Shown here piece after piece: positions 2,188-31,556 of a stretch of 32,000 nt of DNA. The notes below the pieces were generated by a model, which did not search any database, had not been told where the DNA came from, and saw only the letters and a program-made list of their open reading frames with translations. Each line of letters begins with the position of its first letter. Position 1 is the first letter of the stretch. The stretch comes from Vibrio vulnificus CMCP6. GTDB taxonomy: Bacteria > Pseudomonadota > Gammaproteobacteria > Enterobacterales > Vibrionaceae. Location of the stretch: NCBI RefSeq assembly GCF_000039765.1, contig NC_004459.3, positions 930,001 through 962,000 on the forward strand. Direction: 5' to 3'. The translations under genes and the position numbers were made by a program.

Positions 2188-3729
<1,542 letters not shown>

Positions 3730-3877
3730 AAAAGTTTTTTTGAAGCTTGCGCTTCGGCTCAATGAATACTGAATAAATTGACTGTGCCGATACTTAGTAT
3801 CGTTTTGGTCACTCAGTTCATTGATAAATCTTTTGGATTATCATCAACGAGTGCCCACACAGATTGATAGGTTTATA

Positions 3878-3889
3878 TTGTTAAAGAGC
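3878..3889 (-). promoter_or_regulatory. boxA element in the rrn leader
   Basis: The minus strand reads GCTCTTTAACAA, about 150 nt upstream of the 16S 5' end. Confidence 0.65.
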
Positions 3890-3926
3890 TTTGCTTTCAG
3901 CGCTTTAGCACTTAAGCAGGACGCGT

Positions 3927-3954
3927 ATAATACGCTATTGACTCTGTAAGTCAA
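3927..3954 (-). promoter_or_regulatory. sigma70 rrn promoter of the downstream operon (only one recognisable)
   Basis: The minus strand reads TTGACT-16 nt-TATTAT followed by the GC-rich discriminator ACGCGTCC. It lies between the upstream operon's 5S and this operon's leader. Confidence 0.6.
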
Positions 3955-4020
3955 CATAAAACTCTAAGCTTTTTGCTTAAAACTTTATGGTGACTGGTCT
4001 AATTAAAGACAAGTCGAACC

Positions 4021-7690: not shown

Positions 7691-9232
<1,542 letters not shown>

Positions 9233-21792: not shown

Positions 21793-22707
21793 ATGACCGC
21801 AGAAGAACAACAAAAAGCACGCCAAGGGGTGTTACTCGCCTTAGGTGCTTATACCATGTGGGGCATCGCGCCCATCTATTTTAAGTCGCTCGCGGCGGTC
21901 TCTCCGCTCGAAATACTCAGCCATCGCGTGGTGTGGTCTTTTTTCTTGCTCGCCGCCCTGCTCCATTTTGGCCGTCATTGGCGCACCGTGCGCGACGTTT
22001 TAACCAGCAAGAGCAAGATGCTCTATCTGGTCACGACCGCCATTTTAGTCGGCGCTAACTGGTTAATTTTTATTTGGGCGGTCAATGCCAACCACATGCT
22101 TGACGCCAGTCTTGGCTATTACATCAACCCACTGATCAATGTGTTGCTCGGCATGCTGTTTCTTGGCGAGCGATTACGTAAGTTGCAGTGGTTTGCAGTC
22201 ACCTTAGCGGCTTGTGGCGTGCTGGTGCAGCTTATCGTGTTTGGTTCGGTACCGATCGTCGCGATTGCTCTCGCCTTTAGCTTTGGCTTCTACGGCTTGC
22301 TGCGTAAAAAAGTCAGCGTTGATGCCCAAACCGGACTGTTCATTGAAACCTTAGTGATGTTGCCAGCCGCAGCGATTTACCTGTTGTTTATTGCTGCTAC
22401 CCCCACCTCTAATGTGTTGGCCAACCCTAGCCAGCTCAATCTGCTGCTCATTGCCGCAGGTGTCGTTACGACGCTGCCTTTGCTCTGCTTTACTGGCGCC
22501 GCCACTCGACTCAAGTTGTCCACCTTAGGCTTTTTCCAATACATAGGCCCAAGTTTGATGTTCTTACTGGCCGTGTTGATTTACGGTGAAGCCTTCACCA
22601 GTGACAAAGCGCTCACCTTCGCCTTTATCTGGGGGGCACTCGTGGTATTTAGTTTCGACGGCTTACGCTATCGCCGCAACAGCCGAAAAACCGCACTCAG
22701 CCACTGA
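21793..22707 (+). CDS. rarD: EamA/DMT-family permease RarD
   Basis: RQGVLLAL.AY..WGIAP.YFK, GGNWL.FIWAVN..HML.ASLGY.INPL and LSTLGFFQYIGP.LMFLLAV are collinear with E. coli RarD as recalled. Confidence 0.88.
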   Translation: MTAEEQQKARQGVLLALGAYTMWGIAPIYFKSLAAVSPLEILSHRVVWSFFLLAALLHFGRHWRTVRDVLTSKSKMLYLVTTAILVGANWLIFIWAVNANHMLDASLGYYINPLINVLLGMLFLGERLRKLQWFAVTLAACGVLVQLIVFGSVPIVAIALAFSFGFYGLLRKKVSVDAQTGLFIETLVMLPAAAIYLLFIAATPTSNVLANPSQLNLLLIAAGVVTTLPLLCFTGAATRLKLSTLGFFQYIGPSLMFLLAVLIYGEAFTSDKALTFAFIWGALVVFSFDGLRYRRNSRKTALSH

Positions 22708-22742
22708 TCGTTTTTTACAAGACAAATGCCATTGAGCTCGCT

Positions 22743-22773
22743 AAGCTTGGTCACAAACTGACCAAGCTTTTTT
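22743..22773 (+). terminator. Rho-independent terminator after rarD
   Basis: Perfect 11-bp stem AAGCTTGGTCA / TGACCAAGCTT with loop CAAAC, followed by TTTTTTG. It ends 8 nt before the ATG of the next gene. Confidence 0.8.
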
Positions 22774-22780
22774 GTACTCT

Positions 22781-23578
22781 ATGGAGCAGATCCACTACAT
22801 CCCAACACAAGATGACAAGCTCAGCCTGATTGATGCGAAGTATCAGAAGTTTGCCTTTTCACGGCACTATCATCTGGATTTCCATATCGGGCTGATTACT
22901 CATGGCGAACAGCAGTTCCATTCACAGGGTTGTCGTCATCACGTTGGTCATGGGCAGATTGTTATCATGCCTCCTGACGAGCTGCACGATGGCCATTCCA
23001 AACAACAAGAAGGCTATCAGGTGAATGTGTTTGCGATCGAACCTCATCTGTTAAGCGATCTCGCCGATCTTAAGCAAAATGGTCAAATTATCAGCTTTAA
23101 TCAGATGATCATCTCCGATCCTGTGGTTTTTTCACAACTTCGTAACCTGCACGCTTGGTTGCGCAGTAAAAACATCAGCCAACTCGCCCAAGATTGTTTG
23201 CCATTTGAAGGGTTTAGCACCCTTTTTGATCGCTATGGATCCACTTGCCGCCAAAAAGCCGTACCACTGGGTCAGCAATCGTTGGCGACACTCAAAGAGT
23301 TTCTACTGGCGAATCTCGATCAACCTGTGCGCTTAGAAACACTGGCACAACTCTGCCAACTTTCCCCCACTCAATTTCAGCGCCAGTTCAAAACCAGAAT
23401 GGGCATGACACCCTATGCATGGCTGAGCCGCTTACGTTTAGAACAAGCGATGAAGCTGCTTCAAGCGGGCCAATCCAGCACTGAGGTGGCGCACCAAATT
23501 GGCTACTATGACCAAGCACATTTCAGCAAAGCCTTCAAACAGACCTACGGTATTACCCCATCGCAAATTGCACGTTAG
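22781..23578 (+). CDS. AraC/XylS-family transcriptional regulator (N-terminal cupin-like sensor domain)
   Basis: The C-terminal double HTH is L..LA..C.LSP.QFQR.FK...GMTPY.WL...RL..A..LL and IGYYDQAHFSKAFK..YGITPSQ. I used the ATG at 22781. The track start at 22772 is a TTG inside the terminator T-run. Confidence 0.85.
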   Translation: MEQIHYIPTQDDKLSLIDAKYQKFAFSRHYHLDFHIGLITHGEQQFHSQGCRHHVGHGQIVIMPPDELHDGHSKQQEGYQVNVFAIEPHLLSDLADLKQNGQIISFNQMIISDPVVFSQLRNLHAWLRSKNISQLAQDCLPFEGFSTLFDRYGSTCRQKAVPLGQQSLATLKEFLLANLDQPVRLETLAQLCQLSPTQFQRQFKTRMGMTPYAWLSRLRLEQAMKLLQAGQSSTEVAHQIGYYDQAHFSKAFKQTYGITPSQIAR

Positions 23579-23665
23579 TGTTGCCTGTGTCAGTTTTTTA
23601 CAAGCGCAAAGCCGCGCAACCCGAGACAATCTACACTCGATTTTGATGATGCACGAGAAACACTC

Positions 23666-24337
23666 ATGAACGAACTGACGATTTTACTGACGCTGGCAAG
23701 CGTCCACTTTATTGCTTTGATGAGCCCCGGCCCCGACGTGGCACTGGTCGTGCAAAACGCAAGCCGCTATGGCCGCCAAACGGGCCTTTTTATTGCCCTC
23801 GGTTTGTCTGTTGGCATTTTGCTGCATTCTCTATTAAGCCTGACGGGCGTGAGTTACTTGGTCCACCAGCAACCGATGTTGTATGCCTTATTACAACTGC
23901 TGGGTGGCAGCTATTTGCTCTATTTGGGCATTGGCGCGTTGCATTCCGTATTACGTCATTGGCGTCAGCCATCGGTGAATCCCACCATCACTCAACGGCA
24001 GTGGACGCTGAACACGAAACGCCAAGCTTTTCTCAAAGGCTTTGCCACCAACATTCTCAATCCCAAGGCGTTAGTGTTTTTTGTCAGCCTGCTATCGAGC
24101 TTAATCCCAGCAACCATGTCGCTCTCTGGCAAGGCCACAGCGGTGATGATTTTATTTGCGTTGTCATTTCTTTGGTTTGCCAGCTTAGCGTGGGCGCTCT
24201 CTGGTCGCCGAATGCAACAGCATTTACACAAAGCGAGTGTCTATATTGATGGCATTTGCGGCGTTTTATTCTGCTTAATTGGCGCAGGCATCCTCTACAA
24301 CACGGTGATTCATCAAGTCATCAGCCAAGTTGCATAG
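23666..24337 (+). CDS. LysE/RhtB-family amino-acid efflux protein
   Basis: A 223-aa protein with six predicted TM segments. It has the N-terminal family signature SPGPD and the later NP(K)A motif. It lies directly downstream of the AraC regulator. Confidence 0.85.
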   Translation: MNELTILLTLASVHFIALMSPGPDVALVVQNASRYGRQTGLFIALGLSVGILLHSLLSLTGVSYLVHQQPMLYALLQLLGGSYLLYLGIGALHSVLRHWRQPSVNPTITQRQWTLNTKRQAFLKGFATNILNPKALVFFVSLLSSLIPATMSLSGKATAVMILFALSFLWFASLAWALSGRRMQQHLHKASVYIDGICGVLFCLIGAGILYNTVIHQVISQVA

Positions 24338-25029: not shown

Positions 25030-27204
25030 TCACAGTTTTTCCAGCCTCGCGTAAGCGGTCACTAGCCACTTGATTCCTTCCCCATTGAAGGCCACTTGAA
25101 CTCGACTTTGTGGCCCACTGCCTTCAAAGTTGATGATCGTCCCTTCACCAAACTTTGGGTGACGCACACGAGAGCCGAGCGAAAAGCCCGTTTCATTGAA
25201 GCTCTCTTTGACCACAGTTTGGCTAAAGCGACCACTGCTGGCAGGACGGCTGACTTGCGCTTTCATGCGCACTTCATCCAAGCAGCTTTCCGGCAGCTCT
25301 CGGATAAAACGTGATGGTTTATGATATTTGTCTTGCCCGTACAAACGACGCATTTCAGCGTAGGTAATATAGAGCTTCTGCATTGCCCGAGTCATGCCCA
25401 CGTAGCACAAACGGCGCTCTTCTTCTAAGCGGCCCGCTTCTTCGGCGGACATCTGGCTCGGGAACATGCCTTCTTCCACGCCCACCATAAACACCAATGG
25501 GAACTCCAATCCTTTGGCGCTGTGTAAGGTCATCAGTTGTACCGCATCTTCGAAATCGTCCGCTTGACCTTCACCCGCCTCCAAAGCGGCATGGGTTAAG
25601 AAAGCAGTGAGCAAACTCATCTCTTCGGCTTCTTCCGGTTTTTCAAACTGACGTGTCGCCGTGACCAACTCTTCCAAGTTCTCAATGCGAGCCTTGGACT
25701 TCTCGCCTTTCTCTTGCTCATACATGGTGTACAAGCCTGAGGATTTGATCACATGGTCGGTTTGAATGTGCAGTGGCATTTCAAAGCTGTCGTCTTCCAG
25801 CGCCGTGATCAGCTCGATAAAGCGACTTAACGCACCAGCAGCACGCCCCGTTAACACTTTTTCTTCGATCAAAGCGATACTGGCTTCCCACAAGGTGCAG
25901 CCACGATCGCGCGCGGCAAAACGCACCGTTTCCAAGGTTTTGTCCCCTAAGCCACGCGTTGGAGTATTAACCACACGTTCAAAGGCCGCGTCGTCATTGC
26001 GGTTGGCGATGAGGCGCAGATAGCTCAATGCATCTTTGATCTCTTGGCGCTCGAAGAATCGCATCCCGCCGTAAATGCGATAAGGCAAACCCGCTTGAAT
26101 CAACGCTTCTTCCAGTACACGCGACTGGGCGTTATTGCGATAAAGCATCGCTGCGTCGTTCAACACGCCGCCTTTGTCCTGCCACTCTTTGATTTTGTTC
26201 ACCGCAAAACGCGCTTCATCCAATTCGTTGTAAGCAGAATAAATCGAGATCGGTTCACCTTCGACGCCATCGGTCCACAGCTCTTTGCCCATACGCTCGG
26301 TATTGTTGGCAATCAAGGCGTTTGAGGCTTCTAGGATGGTTTTGGTCGAACGGTAGTTTTGCTCGAGGCGAATGGTGTTGACGCTCGGAAACTCAAGGGT
26401 GAACTTTTCGATGTTTTCCACTTTCGCGCCACGCCAACCGTAAATCGACTGGTCATCATCACCGACGATCATCACATGGCATTCAGGCCCCGCCATCATA
26501 CGCAGCCAAGCGTATTGAATGTTGTTGGTGTCTTGGAACTCGTCCACCAAGATGTGTTTAAAGCGCGCTTGATAGTGTTCGCGGATAAATTTGTTCTCAC
26601 GCAGTAGCTCATGCGCACGCAGCAAGATCTCCGCAAAGTCGACCAAGCCTGCGCGATCACACGCTTCTTGATAGGCGGTGTACAACTGTAGGTAGGTTTT
26701 GGTCACGGGATCGTGGTAGGCATCGATGTGCGCAGGGCGTAATCCTTCGTCTTTTTTGCCATTGATCCACCAAGCGACTTGGCGCGCTGGCCACTGTTTG
26801 TCATCCAGGTTTTGCGCTTTGATCAGTCGCTTAAGCAAACGTTGTTGGTCGTCGCTATCAATAATTTGGAAATCTTCCGGCAGCTTGGCATCCAGATAGT
26901 GCGCTCTGAGAATTCGGTGGCAAATACCGTGGAAGGTGCCATTCCACATGCCCGACGCACTGCCCATCATCAACTCTTCGATTCGACCACGCATCTCCGC
27001 CGCCGCCTTATTGGTAAAGGTCACAGACATAATAGAAAACGGAGAAGCCTGCTCGACTGACATTAGCCAAGCAATGCGATGCACAAGAACGCGCGTTTTA
27101 CCACTGCCTGCGCCTGCCAACACCAGCAAGTTTTCCAAAGGTGCAGCAACAGCCTCACGCTGTTTGTCGTTCAAGCCATCGAGAAGAAGTGAAGGATCGA
27201 TCAT
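25030..27204 (-). CDS. uvrD: DNA helicase II UvrD
   Basis: The 724-aa product is collinear with E. coli UvrD (LNDKQREAVAAP..NLLVLAGAGSGKTRVLVHRIAWLM, ILVDEFQDTN, VGDDDQSIYGWRGA, LEQNYRST, the QLMTLHSAKGLEF region). Confidence 0.97.
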   Translation of the reverse strand: MIDPSLLLDGLNDKQREAVAAPLENLLVLAGAGSGKTRVLVHRIAWLMSVEQASPFSIMSVTFTNKAAAEMRGRIEELMMGSASGMWNGTFHGICHRILRAHYLDAKLPEDFQIIDSDDQQRLLKRLIKAQNLDDKQWPARQVAWWINGKKDEGLRPAHIDAYHDPVTKTYLQLYTAYQEACDRAGLVDFAEILLRAHELLRENKFIREHYQARFKHILVDEFQDTNNIQYAWLRMMAGPECHVMIVGDDDQSIYGWRGAKVENIEKFTLEFPSVNTIRLEQNYRSTKTILEASNALIANNTERMGKELWTDGVEGEPISIYSAYNELDEARFAVNKIKEWQDKGGVLNDAAMLYRNNAQSRVLEEALIQAGLPYRIYGGMRFFERQEIKDALSYLRLIANRNDDAAFERVVNTPTRGLGDKTLETVRFAARDRGCTLWEASIALIEEKVLTGRAAGALSRFIELITALEDDSFEMPLHIQTDHVIKSSGLYTMYEQEKGEKSKARIENLEELVTATRQFEKPEEAEEMSLLTAFLTHAALEAGEGQADDFEDAVQLMTLHSAKGLEFPLVFMVGVEEGMFPSQMSAEEAGRLEEERRLCYVGMTRAMQKLYITYAEMRRLYGQDKYHKPSRFIRELPESCLDEVRMKAQVSRPASSGRFSQTVVKESFNETGFSLGSRVRHPKFGEGTIINFEGSGPQSRVQVAFNGEGIKWLVTAYARLEKL

Positions 27205-27214
27205 GATAAGAAGC

Positions 27215-27234
27215 TACTGGTTATTTATACAGAA
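27215..27234 (-). promoter_or_regulatory. LexA (SOS) box in the uvrD promoter region
   Basis: The minus strand reads CTGTATAAATAACCAG (CTG-N10-CAG, AT-rich centre). It lies immediately downstream of a TATAAT hexamer (27241-27246 on the minus strand) and 13-28 nt upstream of the uvrD ATG. E. coli uvrD is a known SOS gene. Confidence 0.7.
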
Positions 27235-27469
27235 ACAAGGATTATAACCTAAACCGTGCTCGCTTTTCAGACTAAATTGCAATTTAAGAAAAAGGCATCA
27301 ACCAGTTACAAATCATAGAGATAGTTACAGGCGTGATGAATTTATAAAAAATAATCGCCATTTTTTTGAAAGTTTTTCCCGCAACTTGCTGTCCTTTTAA
27401 CCAAGCAAGTGAGTCCACTCGGACGCACGAGCTCAATAAGTAAAGGAAAATCAGTCTGAGGAAAGAACC

Positions 27470-27730
27470 ATGAAAAAATCAAATCTTGCTGTTACTGCTG
27501 TTGTTACCGGTTTAATCGCAATGGGTGGCACTATGCTGACTGCAGCGCCTGCTATGGCGGCAGAAAAAGAGAAATGCTATGGCGTAGCCAAAGCGGGCAA
27601 AAATGACTGCGCCACCAAAACCAGCTCTTGCGCTGGTACGGCAAAAGAAGACAACCAAAAAGACGCTTTCGTGGTTGTTCCTAAAGGCTTATGCGGCAAA
27701 TTGGCCGGTGGTAACACACAATCTTCTTAA
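27470..27730 (+). CDS. DUF2282-type Cys-rich exported peptide; putative RiPP precursor (BufA/GigA-like)
   Basis: SD GAGGAAAG. The Sec signal peptide is [30 protein letters not shown]|AEKEK. The 56-aa mature part carries four Cys in the family pattern [15 protein letters not shown]-x5-SCAGT-x17-PKGLCGK. Confidence 0.85.
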
Positions 27731-27847
27731 GCCCCTTATTGAGGTGAACACCACCGCAAAACAGCAGGAGCACAGAGGCTCAACCGTGCTCCTCCTTTCT
27801 CACCTCATGTCACACCGTCCGCAAATTTTGCCGCAGGGAGTCTAACG

Positions 27848-28723
27848 ATGTCGAACACTGAGTTTCATCCCCATATTGGTGTTGGGCTTAGACTGCCCCA
27901 TCACGATCATTTTCATCACCATCGACCAGCGTTGTCTTGGTTGGAGATTCACAGCGAAAATTACTTCCAACCCAATTCTTTCCACCGCCAGCAACTCAAC
28001 CAAATGGCGGAGCATTACCAAATCAGTTGCCACGGGATTGGTTTGTCGCTCGGTTCTGTGGCTGGGGTTAATCCACAACATTTATTACGCTTAAAACAGT
28101 TGGTTGATGACTTACAACCATTTTTGGTTTCGGATCATCTCAGCTGGAGCGAAAACGGTGGCCACTACTTTAATGATTTGCTGCCTTTGCCCTACACAGA
28201 GGAAGCACTCGAGGTTTTTTGCCGTAACGTGCTGCATGTACAAGACGCACTAAAACGGCCGATCTTGATCGAGAATCCTTCCAGCTATCTCAAGTACCAA
28301 CATTCCACCATCAGTGAATGGCAGTTTTTGACTGAGGTGCAGCGTCGTACCGACTGCCGCTTGTTGCTCGATCTGAACAATGTCTATGTTTCTGCGTTTA
28401 ACCATGGTTTTGATTGCCAAACCTACCTTGAGGCGATACCAGCAGCGTGCGTTGACGAAATTCACCTTGCCGGCTTCACTATTAAATCGTTAGAGCAAGG
28501 AGAGATCTGGATTGATACCCATAGCCAGCCGGTGTCTGCCGAAGTTTGGCAATTGTATCAGCAGTGGATTGCCCAGCACGGCAGCCGACACACCTTGATT
28601 GAGTGGGATTTGGATTTGCCCCCCGTCGATGTGCTGCTCAACGAAGCAAAAAAAGCCGACACTCTGTTGCGAGCGTCTCTGCTTCATACCAACCCAATGC
28701 ACCCTTCACTAGCGTTAGGTTAA
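27848..28723 (+). CDS. DUF692 / MNIO-family (MbnB-like) multinuclear non-heme iron enzyme; putative precursor-modifying oxidase (BufB/GigB-like)
   Basis: SD GGGAG. The 291-aa protein has TIM-barrel family motifs GVGLR, WLEIHSENYF, VSDHLSW, ILIENPSSY, LLLDLNNVYVSA, DEIHLAGF and LIEWD. Confidence 0.85.
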   Translation: MSNTEFHPHIGVGLRLPHHDHFHHHRPALSWLEIHSENYFQPNSFHRQQLNQMAEHYQISCHGIGLSLGSVAGVNPQHLLRLKQLVDDLQPFLVSDHLSWSENGGHYFNDLLPLPYTEEALEVFCRNVLHVQDALKRPILIENPSSYLKYQHSTISEWQFLTEVQRRTDCRLLLDLNNVYVSAFNHGFDCQTYLEAIPAACVDEIHLAGFTIKSLEQGEIWIDTHSQPVSAEVWQLYQQWIAQHGSRHTLIEWDLDLPPVDVLLNEAKKADTLLRASLLHTNPMHPSLALG

Positions 28724-28734
28724 CAGGAGGCCAA

Positions 28735-29508
28735 ATGCAACTCGCCGAATTTCAACACCAGTTTCGCCAAGCACTACATTATCAAGCCAGTGGTGAATCC
28801 TGCGGCATTGTTAGTGACCAATTCAGTGCCGAGCAGCGGATACAAATTTACCGCAATAACTTTGTCATGAGTCTCAATGAAGTGTTAGCACTTACTTACC
28901 CCAAGACCTTAGCGTTGTTGGGAGAAGAATGCTTCGAGCAAATGGCGCGCCAACACGTACTCTCTGTGCCATTACACACTGGGGATGTGTCGCAATACGG
29001 GCGTGGATTTGCCAAGACGTTGGAACGTTTCCCCAACGTGAGCCAAGCGGTACCCTACTGTGTTGAGTTTGCGCGCTTGGAAGATCAACTCGATGAAAGC
29101 CAACAGCAACAAAATGAATTCCAGATACCGCGATATTGGCAATCCCTAGAGCAACTTTCACAACTCGAACCAGCACAGCATCAGGCGTTGGTGCTGCACC
29201 TTTTTCCCGGTTGCACGGCTTTTCGTTCCCACTACGCCGTTTTTTCACTCTTTACGGCGATTGAAACACAACAATTCGATCAACTTGAGATTGCGCAAAG
29301 CGAGCAAGGGATATTGCTCTGCCATCAAGCAACACCGCCGCGCTGCATAACGATGACGCCCGCACAATACGAGTTGGTCTGTTTGCTTGAACAACCACTT
29401 CCCCTCGCACAGATACCCGCACCTTTGCTTGCTGAACTGGCTTTTCTGTTCGAACTGGGTATTTTCGCGGGTTTTTCTCTCGCACCACAAGGAGGCTCCG
29501 ATGCGTGA
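28735..29508 (+). CDS. DUF2063-family protein; putative MNIO partner / precursor-recognition subunit (BufC/GigC-like)
   Basis: The ATG at 28735 is preceded by AGGAGG and lies 11 nt after the DUF692 stop. The N-terminal pattern is FQ..F..AL...., R.QIYRNNF...L.E.L...YP....L.G...F..... . The DUF692-DUF2063 pairing is conserved. The track's longer ORF (28603) overlaps the DUF692 gene out of frame and is rejected. Confidence 0.78.
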   Translation: MQLAEFQHQFRQALHYQASGESCGIVSDQFSAEQRIQIYRNNFVMSLNEVLALTYPKTLALLGEECFEQMARQHVLSVPLHTGDVSQYGRGFAKTLERFPNVSQAVPYCVEFARLEDQLDESQQQQNEFQIPRYWQSLEQLSQLEPAQHQALVLHLFPGCTAFRSHYAVFSLFTAIETQQFDQLEIAQSEQGILLCHQATPPRCITMTPAQYELVCLLEQPLPLAQIPAPLLAELAFLFELGIFAGFSLAPQGGSDA

Positions 29509-29947
29509 ATGGCTGAATCGTTATGACACTACCGTTACCCACTTACAATCTTGGGTGGTGCCCGGAGTATTACTATTTTGTCGCCTTTGGGTGGCGTGGG
29601 TTTTCTTCAATGCTGGATTAAGCAAAATCACCTCATGGGATAGCACTCTCTATCTGTTCGAGTTGGAATATCAGGTGCCTATTTTACCCTGGGAGTTGGC
29701 CGCTTATCTCGCCACGGCGGCCGAGCTTAGCTTACCGATCTTACTCGCCCTCGGCGTGTTCACCCGCATCACCAGCCTAGTGCTATTTGCCTTTAACGCG
29801 ATGGCCGTGATCTCCTACCCGCTTTTGTGGGAGAAAGGGTTTTACGATCATCAACTATGGGGGCTGATGCTGCTGATGACGTTTCTTTGGGGCGCGGGGC
29901 GAATTTCGCTCGATCACTGTTTTCGCCAAGAAATAGAGAAACGCTAG
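29501..29947 (+). CDS. DoxX-family integral membrane protein (BufD/GigD-like)
   Basis: The ATG at 29501 is preceded by AAGGAGG and overlaps the DUF2063 stop (ATGCGTGA). The 148-aa product has four hydrophobic segments, LLF.RLWVAWVFF.AGL.K and GRISLD typical of DoxX. Confidence 0.78.
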   Translation: MREWLNRYDTTVTHLQSWVVPGVLLFCRLWVAWVFFNAGLSKITSWDSTLYLFELEYQVPILPWELAAYLATAAELSLPILLALGVFTRITSLVLFAFNAMAVISYPLLWEKGFYDHQLWGLMLLMTFLWGAGRISLDHCFRQEIEKR

Positions 29948-29949
29948 AA

Positions 29950-29990
29950 AGAAAAATCCCCGCTCAAATTGGCGGGGATTCTTTTATTTG
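29950..29990. terminator. Bidirectional rho-independent terminator closing the DUF2282-DoxX operon and the convergent small gene
   Basis: Stem AATCCCCGC / GCGGGGATT. It is followed by CTTTTATTTG on the plus strand and TTTTTCTTTC on the minus strand. Confidence 0.85.
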
Positions 29991-30268
29991 TTCTGTAGAT
30001 AAGCAAGCAGCTCGTCAGCGGAAATACCTTGCTCGGCAAGCTCTTTCGCCATGGATTCAACCTGCTCTCCTTTCCGAGAATTGATAACCTGCTGAAACTG
30101 ATAAACGATATCTCTGAGAACATGCAGTGGCACCTGTTTTGCTGCACTGCGAATACGCTCTTCACTTTGATTGCCCAGTTCAACGAGCAACTTGCCGAAC
30201 ATAATTTTCTCTGGTGACTCTTCCATTTGTTCAAGGATTCGAGCCATTTCATATGTGGTTAACGACAT
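29984..30268 (-). CDS. Small helical acidic protein (94 aa) with weak resemblance to the H-NS oligomerisation region and no DNA-binding domain
   Basis: The ORF has a candidate promoter (minus strand TTTACT-16 nt-TATATT, 30323-30350). The segments LHVLRDIVYQFQQVINSRKGEQ and LAEQGISADELLAYL resemble E. coli H-NS [22 protein letters not shown] and LIADGIDPNELLNSL as recalled. Confidence 0.55.
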   Translation of the reverse strand: MSLTTYEMARILEQMEESPEKIMFGKLLVELGNQSEERIRSAAKQVPLHVLRDIVYQFQQVINSRKGEQVESMAKELAEQGISADELLAYLQNK

Positions 30269-30362
30269 TACCTATCAATTCCGTTAAGTGTCGAATGGTG
30301 GAGTGAGCGACAAATATACACGGCTTCGCCATACAGTAAAACTCTAAATTGGCGTTGCGTGG

Positions 30363-31556
30363 TTAAGCCACCACGCCTTTGCTGTGCCACTGGCGGCCCA
30401 ATTTTGAAAACAGAATCCCTAATGCCGGAACCAGCAGCCACATTTGAATCGCAATCATCAGTTGAGGTTCTAACGCAAAACGCTGCATGGTGCCCACTAA
30501 CAGACCCGCACCACTCATTTGGAATAAGCCCAGCAGTGCGGCAGCCGTGCCGGCTTTATCGCCAAATGGCTCTAACGCTTTACCTGCGGCGGCACCAAGA
30601 ATCCAAGCAAAGCCGACGGATGACAGGAAGATAGGCAACATAAAGGCAAATGGCGTCGCGGTTTCTGCCATCACCAACATGACTACGCCAGCGATCGCCA
30701 GAGTCACCACGCCCACCACCAGTGTATTGTGAGTACCCCATTTATCCATGAACTTAGGTGCCAGCATACAAGCCGCGATATTGATCGCCGCGTTGACACC
30801 AAACCAGAAAGTAAATTGGTTCATGGTTAGGCCAAGCCCTTCCATCAACACCACAGGTGCTGAGGTTACGTAAGCGAGGATCACCGCCATCGCCAGCAAA
30901 CACAGCGTGGCATGGAAAACAAAAGAAGGGGTACTCAACACGGCCCAGTAGCGGCTGAGTTTAAACACCGCTTGTTTTTCCGTCGCCGGGTTGCTCTCGC
31001 GCATGTTAAACAGCATCAGCGTGCCAACGACAACGGCAAAGCCCGCCATAAAACTGAAGTTAGCGCGCCAGCCAAACTGCTGGGTTAGCCAGCTACCCAG
31101 AATGGGGGCAAGCGCCGGAATGAAACAAATGGCCCCGTTAAGATAGCTGATCATTTTGCCACTTTTCTCTGGGCCGAAAATATCGCGAACTGTCGCAAAG
31201 GCTGCTACCGATGTTGCACACGCACCTAAGCCTTGTAGCAGACGGGATACCAACAACCATTCAATATTCTGCGCGCTCCACGCCAATAAAGCGCTCAGTG
31301 CATAGATGGTGATACCGCCCAATGCAACAGTTCGACGTCCGAGTTTATCTGCTAACGGACCGGCAAACAGTTGACCGACGCCCATCGCAAATAGGAACCA
31401 AGTAATCGTGTCTTGTGCTAATGCGTGTTCAACCGAAAAGGTATTGGAAATAAGTGGCAACGCGGGAAGATAAATATCAATTGCCAACGGGCTGAACAAC
31501 ACAAGCAAGGTTAACAACGCCATTTGTAATTTACTGGTTTGGCTCTGACCTGACAC
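30363..31556 (-). CDS. MFS drug/H+ antiporter, Bcr/CflA subfamily
   Basis: The 12-TM pattern with SPLAIDIYLPALP..S, G.LADK.GRR and LQG.GA motifs resembles E. coli Bcr. I prefer the GTG at 31556 (GGAG 6 nt upstream, 397 aa, similar to 396-aa Bcr). The track start at 31748 would run through the divergent LysR gene start. Confidence 0.8.
   Translation of the reverse strand: MSGQSQTSKLQMALLTLLVLFSPLAIDIYLPALPLISNTFSVEHALAQDTITWFLFAMGVGQLFAGPLADKLGRRTVALGGITIYALSALLAWSAQNIEWLLVSRLLQGLGACATSVAAFATVRDIFGPEKSGKMISYLNGAICFIPALAPILGSWLTQQFGWRANFSFMAGFAVVVGTLMLFNMRESNPATEKQAVFKLSRYWAVLSTPSFVFHATLCLLAMAVILAYVTSAPVVLMEGLGLTMNQFTFWFGVNAAINIAACMLAPKFMDKWGTHNTLVVGVVTLAIAGVVMLVMAETATPFAFMLPIFLSSVGFAWILGAAAGKALEPFGDKAGTAAALLGLFQMSGAGLLVGTMQRFALEPQLMIAIQMWLLVPALGILFSKLGRQWHSKGVVA

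Follow-up and report, generated by a model that had tools for sequence, protein, structure and literature searches.

A probable Buf1-type bufferin operon, bufABCD, of Vibrio vulnificus CMCP6 and its conserved setting in Vibrionaceae

A compact four-gene operon occupies positions 27470–29947 of the plus strand in a 32,000-nt stretch of Vibrio vulnificus CMCP6 DNA (NC_004459.3, 930,001–962,000), and it is very probably a Buf1-type bufferin (captophorin) operon, bufABCD, dedicated to a copper-binding modified peptide. The whole stretch is called the window here, and coordinates are positions within it. We base the assignment on the matches of the proteins to Pfam and NCBIfam families, the invariant cysteines and A-x-A cleavage site of the precursor, the intact metal-site residues of the enzyme BufB, the fold of its partner BufC, the conserved synteny of the locus, and the public annotation of the proteins. 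The operon has what a Buf1-type cluster has, namely a four-Cys DUF2282 precursor with a Sec signal, a multinuclear non-heme iron oxidase (MNIO) of the BufB subfamily with its metal residues, a DUF2063 partner protein with a recognition-element-like (RRE-like) fold, and a DoxX protein, whose gene is common in such clusters without being essential to them. Control by SigF and NrsF defines a regulatory subtype of bufferin clusters and not the clusters as such.

Results

Layout and annotation of the operon

The operon consists, in this order, of bufA (27470–27730; an 86-aa precursor of the DUF2282/BufA1 type), bufB (27848–28723; a 291-aa MNIO (DUF692) bufferin maturase), bufC (28735–29508; a 257-aa DUF2063 partner protein), and bufD (29501–29947; a 148-aa DoxX-family membrane protein), all on the plus strand. 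The intergenic distances are 117 nt between bufA and bufB and 11 nt between bufB and bufC, and bufC overlaps bufD by 8 nt. As read from the sequence, each start is preceded by a Shine-Dalgarno element, GAGGA for bufA, GGGAG for bufB, and AGGAGG for both bufC and bufD. Four co-directional genes with strong Shine-Dalgarno elements and exactly these coordinates and gaps had been set out in a preliminary description of this DNA, and our Pfam searches place all four proteins above the gathering thresholds of the families named there, DUF2282, DUF692, DUF2063, and DoxX.

The proteins are exact matches to V. vulnificus CMCP6 VV1_0952–0954 and a neighbor, where BufB is entered as "UPF0276 protein VV1_0952", BufC as AAO09447, and BufD as AAO09448. 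NCBI and UniRef currently list BufA as "BufA1 family periplasmic bufferin-type metallophore", BufB as "MNIO family bufferin maturase", BufC as "HvfC/BufC N-terminal domain-containing protein", and BufD as "DoxX family protein"; hundreds of homologues in Vibrio carry these names too. In the literature searched we found no paper matching VV1_0951–0954 or the inferred tags VV3195–3198, and no experimental paper on the V. vulnificus buf locus, no Vibrio data on copper binding or growth in copper, and no expression data.

The precursor peptide BufA

BufA matches Pfam DUF2282 (PF10048) over profile positions 1–52 of 53, with an E value of 1.6e-22 and a score of 79.7 bits against a cut-off of 22.4. 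A heuristic reading assigns aa 1–30 (27470–27559) to a signal peptide with an n-region MKKSN, a 21-aa h-region of mean Kyte-Doolittle hydropathy 1.78, and a P-A-M-A|A-E cleavage site, which leaves aa 31–86, a stretch of 56 residues, as the predicted core. Among 61 distinct orthologues from Vibrio and Photobacterium, the A-x-A|A-E pattern at the cleavage site is kept, the core is almost invariant, and the four cysteines (residues 36, 47, 54, and 75 of the precursor) do not vary at all, well past anything that chance would give. These comparisons, together with the heuristic signal reading, bear out the earlier picture of an 86-aa peptide with a Sec signal, a 56-aa mature region, and four invariant Cys. 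The mature core is basic (pI 8.8) and contains neither His nor Met, and no EGKCG repeat occurs in BufA. Each cysteine is given a role by analogy with Caulobacter Buf1 (PMC11626156), according to which Cys36 and Cys75 are likely to form a disulfide pair and thiooxazoles are likely to arise at Cys47 and Cys54.

Some Photobacterium loci appear to carry bufA in duplicate. In the one that we inspected (L056), two copies lie in tandem 5′ of bufB at 3399–3665 and 3713–3973 and encode peptides of 88 and 86 aa with nearly identical cores. Three others (L059, L061, and L062) have uvrD-bufA spacers of ~650 nt, from which a tandem pair as in L056 is presumed. The promoter-like block described below precedes the first copy, as seen in L056 and expected in the other three.

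The enzyme BufB, its partner BufC, and BufD

BufB scores 372.7 bits against the NCBIfam equivalog NF050167, "MNIO family bufferin maturase" (MNIO_BufB), for which the cut-off is 310, and it matches Pfam MbnB_TglH_ChrH (PF05114, DUF692) with an E value of 1.4e-105. It stays far under the cut-offs of all other MNIO equivalogs (HvfB, MbnB, ApyH, and ChrH), scoring 227.3 bits against 360 for HvfB and 61.7 against 325 for MbnB. The closest solved structure is 3BWW, a DUF692 protein of Histophilus somni (E 5.9e-38), followed by TglH and MbnB. Residues H62, H97, E142, D175, N178, H206, D223, H225, E252, and D254 are invariant among 23 Vibrionaceae orthologues. Through the 3BWW alignment, N178, D223, and H225 line up with the HvfB site-3 residues N175, D242, and H244, whose substitution abolishes activity. 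The metal-site motifs of BufB also align with those of 3BWW, TglH, and MbnB. We take the remaining residues of these motifs to belong to sites 1 and 2, as in the MbnB structures. Its profile scores and alignments thus place BufB in the bufferin-maturase subfamily of MNIOs, with every metal-site residue intact.

BufC matches Pfam DUF2063 (PF09836) over residues 5–94, with an E value of 4.4e-21, and scores 21 bits with the HvfC model, the cut-off of which is 142. Searching the Protein Data Bank by sequence, with either the single sequence or a profile, gave no relative of BufC, and the fold search alone produced matches. An AlphaFold2 model built on a 30-sequence alignment (predicted local distance difference test 84.9, predicted template modeling score 0.80) matches the fold of TglI (8HI7_A and 8HCI_A, E 3e-5, with 245 columns for 8HI7_A) and that of the DUF2063 protein NGO1945 (3DEE, template modeling score 0.62 by target), and the matches to these two proteins span 234–259 alignment columns. 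Since it is the whole-length model that matches TglI and NGO1945, the C-terminal half also appears to have a partner-protein (RRE-like) fold. As modeled, then, BufC folds like the partner proteins of MNIOs, with a DUF2063 N-domain followed by a C-terminal RRE-like domain.

BufD matches Pfam DoxX (PF07681) with an E value of 7.4e-19 and contains hydrophobic segments; its score with the NCBIfam HvfX family is 55.4 bits, under the cut-off of 80. In one locus from a Vibrio metagenome-assembled genome (L065, 3452–4681), the bufC frame continues into bufD to give a 409-aa open reading frame, which reflects either a true fusion of BufC with DoxX or an artifact of assembly or frameshift.

Conservation across Vibrionaceae

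We scanned one genome per species and obtained a comparison set of 71 Vibrio and Photobacterium loci. The order bufB-bufC-bufD is kept in all 71, so that bufD is at its position in every one, and bufA lies directly upstream in 70; in the exception (L028), bufA is lost at the end of the contig. The gene uvrD is divergent upstream in each of the 69 loci for which that flank was recovered, and the bufB-bufC overlap is ATGA in most species. Leaving out the near-identical locus L001, identity to the V. vulnificus proteins is 63–94% for BufA, 63–77% for BufB, 53–68% for BufD, and 32–50% for BufC. This gradient, highest for BufA and lowest for BufC, fits a product under strong selection.

The GC content is flat over the operon and its flanks (0.43–0.52) and, with the conserved synteny, gives no sign of horizontal transfer. 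From the synteny and the flat GC content we regard the Vibrionaceae buf locus as old and vertically inherited, not as an island. In every Vibrio and Photobacterium species that we examined, it is a compact, single-copy operon passed on vertically beside uvrD.

The probable promoter region upstream of bufA

An alignment of 66 distinct uvrD-bufA intergenic regions was used for footprinting. It reveals a promoter-like block at 27367–27398 (plus strand), composed of TGAAAGTTTT at 27367–27376 and, ~12 nt further on, CTGTCCTTTT at 27389–27398. The first element is near-invariant across the 66 regions, the second reads CTATC(C/T)TTT in most species, and a conserved TAAGCAAG lies 3′ of the second element, extending the block to 27367–27410. 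This region is probably the buf promoter together with its transcription start, which is predicted to lie near 27402–27406. Just 3′ of TAAGCAAG is a predicted hairpin of the 5′ untranslated region (27404–27433, plus strand; folding free energy (dG) −13.7 kcal/mol, z −2.9), and an analogous GCAAG...CTTGC hairpin occurs at this position in most other species. Within 650 kb of Vibrionaceae DNA, the promoter block was matched only 5′ of bufA.

The block could be a sigma-E-like promoter for an extracytoplasmic function (ECF) sigma factor (GGAACTT-N16-TCTGA) or a weak sigma-70 promoter (TTGAAA-N18-TATCTT). By eye, we saw no convincing sigma-32, sigma-28, sigma-54, CueR, CpxR, OxyR, Fur, or Zur site upstream of bufA, and the Caulobacter SigF motif GTAACC-N16-CGAA has no match in 27205–27469, even with 2 mismatches. 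No regulator gene adjoins the operon, the neighbors being uvrD, tsrA, and a Bcr/CflA gene of the major facilitator superfamily (MFS). The preliminary description was right on this point, and here Vibrio truly departs from Caulobacter, in which buf1 has sigF-nrsF as its neighbor; the regulator of buf transcription would be encoded elsewhere.

The control signals of uvrD lie on the minus strand of the same intergenic region, with a conserved LexA/SOS box, TACTG-N10-CAGAA (CTG-N10-CAG), at 27215–27234 and a TATAAT −10 element at 27241–27246. Some 135 nt separate them from the promoter block of buf, which suggests that each unit is under its own control.

The hairpin between bufA and bufB

The spacer between bufA and bufB contains a hairpin at 27763–27797 (plus strand) with a stem formed by 27766–27773 and 27786–27793 and a loop with GGCTCAACC (dG −14.1, z −2.25). 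Equivalent hairpins lie at ~3815–3975 in 50 Vibrio loci (L001–L048, L050, and L070), which with the V. vulnificus operon makes 51 long-spacer sequences. When each sequence is folded by itself, all 51 form a stable hairpin, with dG from −11.8 to −31.8 and with stem sequences that are unrelated. Of the 51 loops, 31 carry GCTCAA or CTCAAC, giving a conserved loop GCUCAAC. Most Photobacterium loci are missing this spacer.

The loop is specific to the locus. Among 63 hairpins from the bufA-bufB spacer, 28 have CTCAA in their loop, and among 1378 hairpins elsewhere 13 do, and a covariance model built from 22 bufA-bufB hairpins gave matches with E<0.005 at the bufA-bufB spacer only when 650 kb was scanned. 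We therefore reject a generic Vibrio repeat or terminator type. A permissive Rfam search of 27150–30400 returned no family for either hairpin, and all sub-threshold matches fell on the final terminator. We also dropped pairing of the loop within its own message; by eye, UUGAG lies upstream in V. vulnificus and is not conserved.

RNAalifold returned no structure from a MAFFT alignment of the 22 hairpins, in which the stems are out of register. Because fixed-column pair counts do not exceed a slide control (given below), we do not claim formal covariation, and the case for the hairpin rests on per-sequence folding and on its specificity to the locus. A T-run follows the hairpin in some species only. 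It is probably an attenuator, in the sense of a leaky terminator, or an mRNA stabilizer, which would raise the amount of precursor over that of the enzymes. A simple terminator role leaves the conserved GCUCAAC loop unexplained, because it is the loop and not the stem that is kept across Vibrio clades. We thus entertain, as a more doubtful possibility, that the hairpin serves a dedicated post-transcriptional control in which a trans-acting protein or RNA reads the loop and sets the ratio of precursor to enzyme or the stability of the bufA message. If so, the hairpin and the non-canonical promoter would make up a regulatory circuit, specific to this lineage, that governs a metallophore of the core genome.

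The window also holds two copies of CCGGGGCTCAACCTCGG on the minus strand, at ~3103–3119 and ~8606–8622. We take CCGGGGCTCAACCTCGG to be a hairpin of 16S rRNA, and with two copies the stretch appears to hold two rRNA operons. The G-CUCAA-C tip that this hairpin shares with the bufA-bufB hairpin is probably a coincidence.

The operon end and neighboring genes

Downstream of bufD, a hairpin at 29955–29980 has a 10-bp stem that includes 6 GC pairs and precedes CTTTTATTTG. It has a dG of −18.2 and a z of −3.8 against shuffled controls, with an A-run upstream and a T-run downstream. Since it lies between bufD (plus strand) and the convergent tsrA (minus strand), it is fairly called a bidirectional intrinsic terminator serving both strands, as had been claimed.

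The convergent gene tsrA (29984–30268, minus strand) encodes a 94-aa protein that scores 178.8 bits with the NCBIfam TsrA equivalog NF051458 and matches in Pfam the H-NS N-terminal domain only. TsrA is an H-NS-like global regulator known from V. cholerae. Profile searches of the neighbors place the Bcr/CflA efflux MFS gene beyond tsrA. Adjacency of tsrA to the buf operon is confined to vulnificus, Harveyi, and a few other clades. Neither the MFS transporter nor TsrA was accepted as a cluster member, since they flank the operon in some clades only. Upstream of uvrD, at 21793–24337 (plus strand), are genes for an EamA-family transporter, an AraC-family regulator, and a LysE-type translocator, which are unrelated to the buf operon.

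Discussion

Proposed function and alternatives

We infer the chemistry, export, metal binding, and phenotype of the Vibrio system by analogy with Caulobacter Buf1, Haemophilus HvfABC, and Fontimonas FonABC. In the cytoplasm, BufB and BufC would use an iron cofactor and O2 to oxidize Cys47 and Cys54 by four electrons each, giving 5-thiooxazoles. The Sec pathway would then export the precursor and signal peptidase I would cut after Ala30, after which the Cys36-Cys75 disulfide would form in the periplasm. The 56-aa product would chelate periplasmic copper and so buffer the cell against copper excess, with BufD, which is dispensable in Caulobacter, as an accessory. To this scheme the Vibrio locus may add two regulatory features. 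The hairpin after bufA would cut read-through or stabilize the bufA segment of the mRNA, leaving the precursor in excess over the enzymes, and transcription would start from the conserved non-canonical promoter under a regulator from another locus.

Several points weigh against this assignment or its regulatory additions, beginning with the fact that the functional steps are carried over from other organisms. The mature peptide has 56 aa in Vibrio and 68 aa in Caulobacter Buf1, and 6 residues intervene between CysII and CysIII where Caulobacter Buf1 has 7. At the locus there is no metal-responsive regulator and no recognizable metal-regulator operator, and the Caulobacter SigF motif is absent upstream, so that copper induction in Vibrio is an assumption. 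A related and equally conserved MNIO cluster in marine Microbulbifer is not expressed under copper stress (PMC12538549). As for the hairpin, it is without a clear U-tract in V. vulnificus and many other species, and so it is not a classical terminator; moreover, fixed-column pair counts exceed those of shuffles and do not exceed a +3 slide control, in both the MAFFT and the model-fitted alignments.

An alternative is that the operon makes the same periplasmic thiooxazole peptide for a purpose other than copper detoxification, such as handling of Zn, Cd, Au, or Ag, supply of copper to cuproenzymes, or protection against thiol or oxidative stress with DoxX. The lack of a recognized copper-responsive regulator or operator agrees with such a role, as does the finding that the locus is syntenic and part of the core genome and does not lie within a metal-resistance island. 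Elsewhere, gig operons answer to Au, Cd, Cu, or a virulence regulator, the published discussion allows for other metals and a DoxX-linked stress role, and the Microbulbifer mmr cluster is not copper-induced (PMC12538549). We nevertheless consider a non-copper role unlikely, for all characterized members bind copper, Caulobacter Buf1 is copper-selective in a metal mixture, and the Vibrio core retains the four cysteines and the S-C-A context of CysIII.

It is very improbable that the cluster, while conserved, is transcriptionally silent or a relic in V. vulnificus. The conserved Microbulbifer cluster, silent under the conditions tested, is a precedent (PMC12538549), and our literature search turned up no expression data for the V. 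vulnificus locus. Against this, the four open reading frames are intact and have good ribosome-binding sites, BufA keeps 63–94% identity over two genera, no catalytic residue varies, and conservation extends to the promoter block, which together point to purifying selection on an expressed system.

Hardly credible at all is the reading behind the older annotations, in which DUF2282 is a small membrane protein, DUF692 a sugar-isomerase-like TIM barrel, and DUF2063 a DNA-binding regulator with no peptide modification involved: many database copies still bear legacy names ("membrane protein", "DNA-binding domain-containing protein", "UPF0276") and DNA binding was proposed in the paper on the NGO1945 structure (PMC2954202), but the hydrophobic segment of BufA is followed by a conserved A-x-A site and a hydrophilic Cys-rich core, BufB exceeds the bufferin-maturase cut-off, BufC shares the fold of TglI, a proven MNIO partner, and in vitro reconstitution with homologues, in which BufB and BufC were necessary and sufficient to modify BufA1, contradicts it.

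A copper-binding bufferin remains our preferred account of the operon. The operon is real but is not a discovery, because the family, its chemistry, Sec export, and its spread are published and the proteins are already named as bufferin components. The equation of the quartet with the gig and BufABCD systems in the preliminary description agrees with PMC11626156. The Sec signal, the absence of any exporter or protease gene from the cluster, and the DoxX protein, which it had singled out as notable, are indeed present but are published general traits of Buf1 clusters. Likewise, its statement that the system is uncharacterized in this lineage holds for experiments but not for annotation, since bufferin names are already public and MNIO-DUF2063 clusters have been reported as enriched in Vibrionales (PMC13097082). 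What this analysis adds is the Vibrionaceae-wide synteny with uvrD, the conserved non-canonical promoter block, and the locus-specific bufA-bufB hairpin; the regulatory meaning of the latter two is what we infer from them.

As pathogens of humans, fish, and shellfish, V. vulnificus and its relatives encounter copper inside phagocytes, in oysters, and in waters treated with antifouling agents. Being single-copy, compact, and vertically inherited, the operon makes Vibrio a tractable model for the role of DoxX, for metal specificity, and for the control of bufferin clusters that lack SigF/NrsF, and the promoter block and the hairpin with its conserved loop offer concrete handles on the question of regulation.

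Comparison with known systems

The closest counterpart is buf1ABCD of Caulobacter vibrioides (CCNA_03363–03366), a quartet of the same kind that makes bufferin 1 (Leprevost et al. 2024, PMC11626156). There, the precursor has a Sec signal peptide and there is no dedicated exporter or protease; a disulfide joins CysI to CysIV, and CysII and CysIII are turned into 5-thiooxazoles with a loss of 4 Da apiece; BufB and BufC are necessary and sufficient to modify BufA1 in vitro; and DoxX is dispensable (PMC11626156). Caulobacter Buf1 and Buf2 bind copper and improve growth under copper stress, and it is copper that Buf1 selects from the metal mixture (PMC11626156). Vibrio has the same gene content and order, a four-Cys Sec precursor, a BufB equivalog, the S-C-A context of CysIII, and likewise no protease or exporter. 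The two differ in that Caulobacter has sigF-nrsF beside buf1 and a GTAACC-N16-CGAA promoter, whereas Vibrio has no adjacent ECF sigma/anti-sigma pair and no such motif, and in that the conserved bufA-bufB hairpin is a Vibrio feature. Modification and copper binding are demonstrated for Caulobacter and predicted for Vibrio.

The gold-induced gig operon of Cupriavidus metallidurans and its Legionella and Bordetella homologues have the same four-gene architecture as the Vibrio operon and are placed in the bufferin family by the Caulobacter study (PMC11626156). Operons of this type are controlled by metal stress (Au, Cd, or Cu) or by the BvgAS virulence regulator (PMC11626156), and the contribution to copper resistance in Cupriavidus is minor. 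More broadly, the MNIO landscape paper gives genes for a precursor, an MNIO, a DUF2063 protein, and a DoxX protein as the core of bufferin clusters. A 2026 study reports that about half of the reference genomes of Pseudomonadota contain MNIO-DUF2063 clusters, with enrichment in Vibrionales, introduces the class name "captophorins", and describes 5-thiooxazole as the general MNIO-PME1 product (PMC13097082). Whether the modification is a thiooxazole or an oxazolone/thioamide has been debated, and recent work favors 5-thiooxazole for MNIO-DUF2063 systems (PMC13097082). Papers based on antiSMASH had flagged the cluster for a ribosomally made peptide with post-translational modifications (RiPP) in V. 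alginolyticus.

The logic of MNIO, DUF2063 protein (PME1), and DoxX is also common to the Vibrio operon and to HvfABCX/oxazolin of non-typeable Haemophilus influenzae, FonABC/fontiphorin, and gonophorin. These EGKCG captophorins (oxazolin, fontiphorin, and gonophorin) derive from signal-peptide precursors, carry thiooxazoles, and bind copper, and the structure nearest to Vibrio BufB, 3BWW, is a close relative of HvfB. Unlike theirs, however, the Vibrio precursor is of the DUF2282 type, with four single cysteines and no EGKCG repeats, and BufB scores 227 bits with the HvfB model and 373 with that for BufB. With the repeat missing and the HvfB, HvfC, and HvfX models all under their cut-offs, we rejected placement in the HvfABCX/EGKCG oxazolin class.

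Further removed are MbnBC/methanobactin and the Vibrio "Mov" clusters, with which the operon shares an MNIO TIM barrel with conserved metal ligands. In methanobactin-type systems a heterocycle arises by oxidation of Cys and the product chelates copper, and the MNIO landscape paper shows the Vibrio Mov clusters as a separate sequence cluster. These systems differ in their MNIO subfamily, in their partner protein (MbnC, or none for MovX), and in having leader-peptide precursors and an oxazolone-thioamide product. We rejected the methanobactin (MbnABC) class on the low MbnB score given above, the DUF2063 partner, and the Sec-signal precursor.

Stem-loops after the precursor gene are common in lantibiotic and other RiPP operons, for example between nisA and nisB. 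The Vibrio hairpin resembles them in being stable and in lying directly 3′ of a small precursor gene and 5′ of the enzyme genes, and it differs from them in that in Vibrio it is the loop, GCUCAAC, that is conserved rather than the stem.

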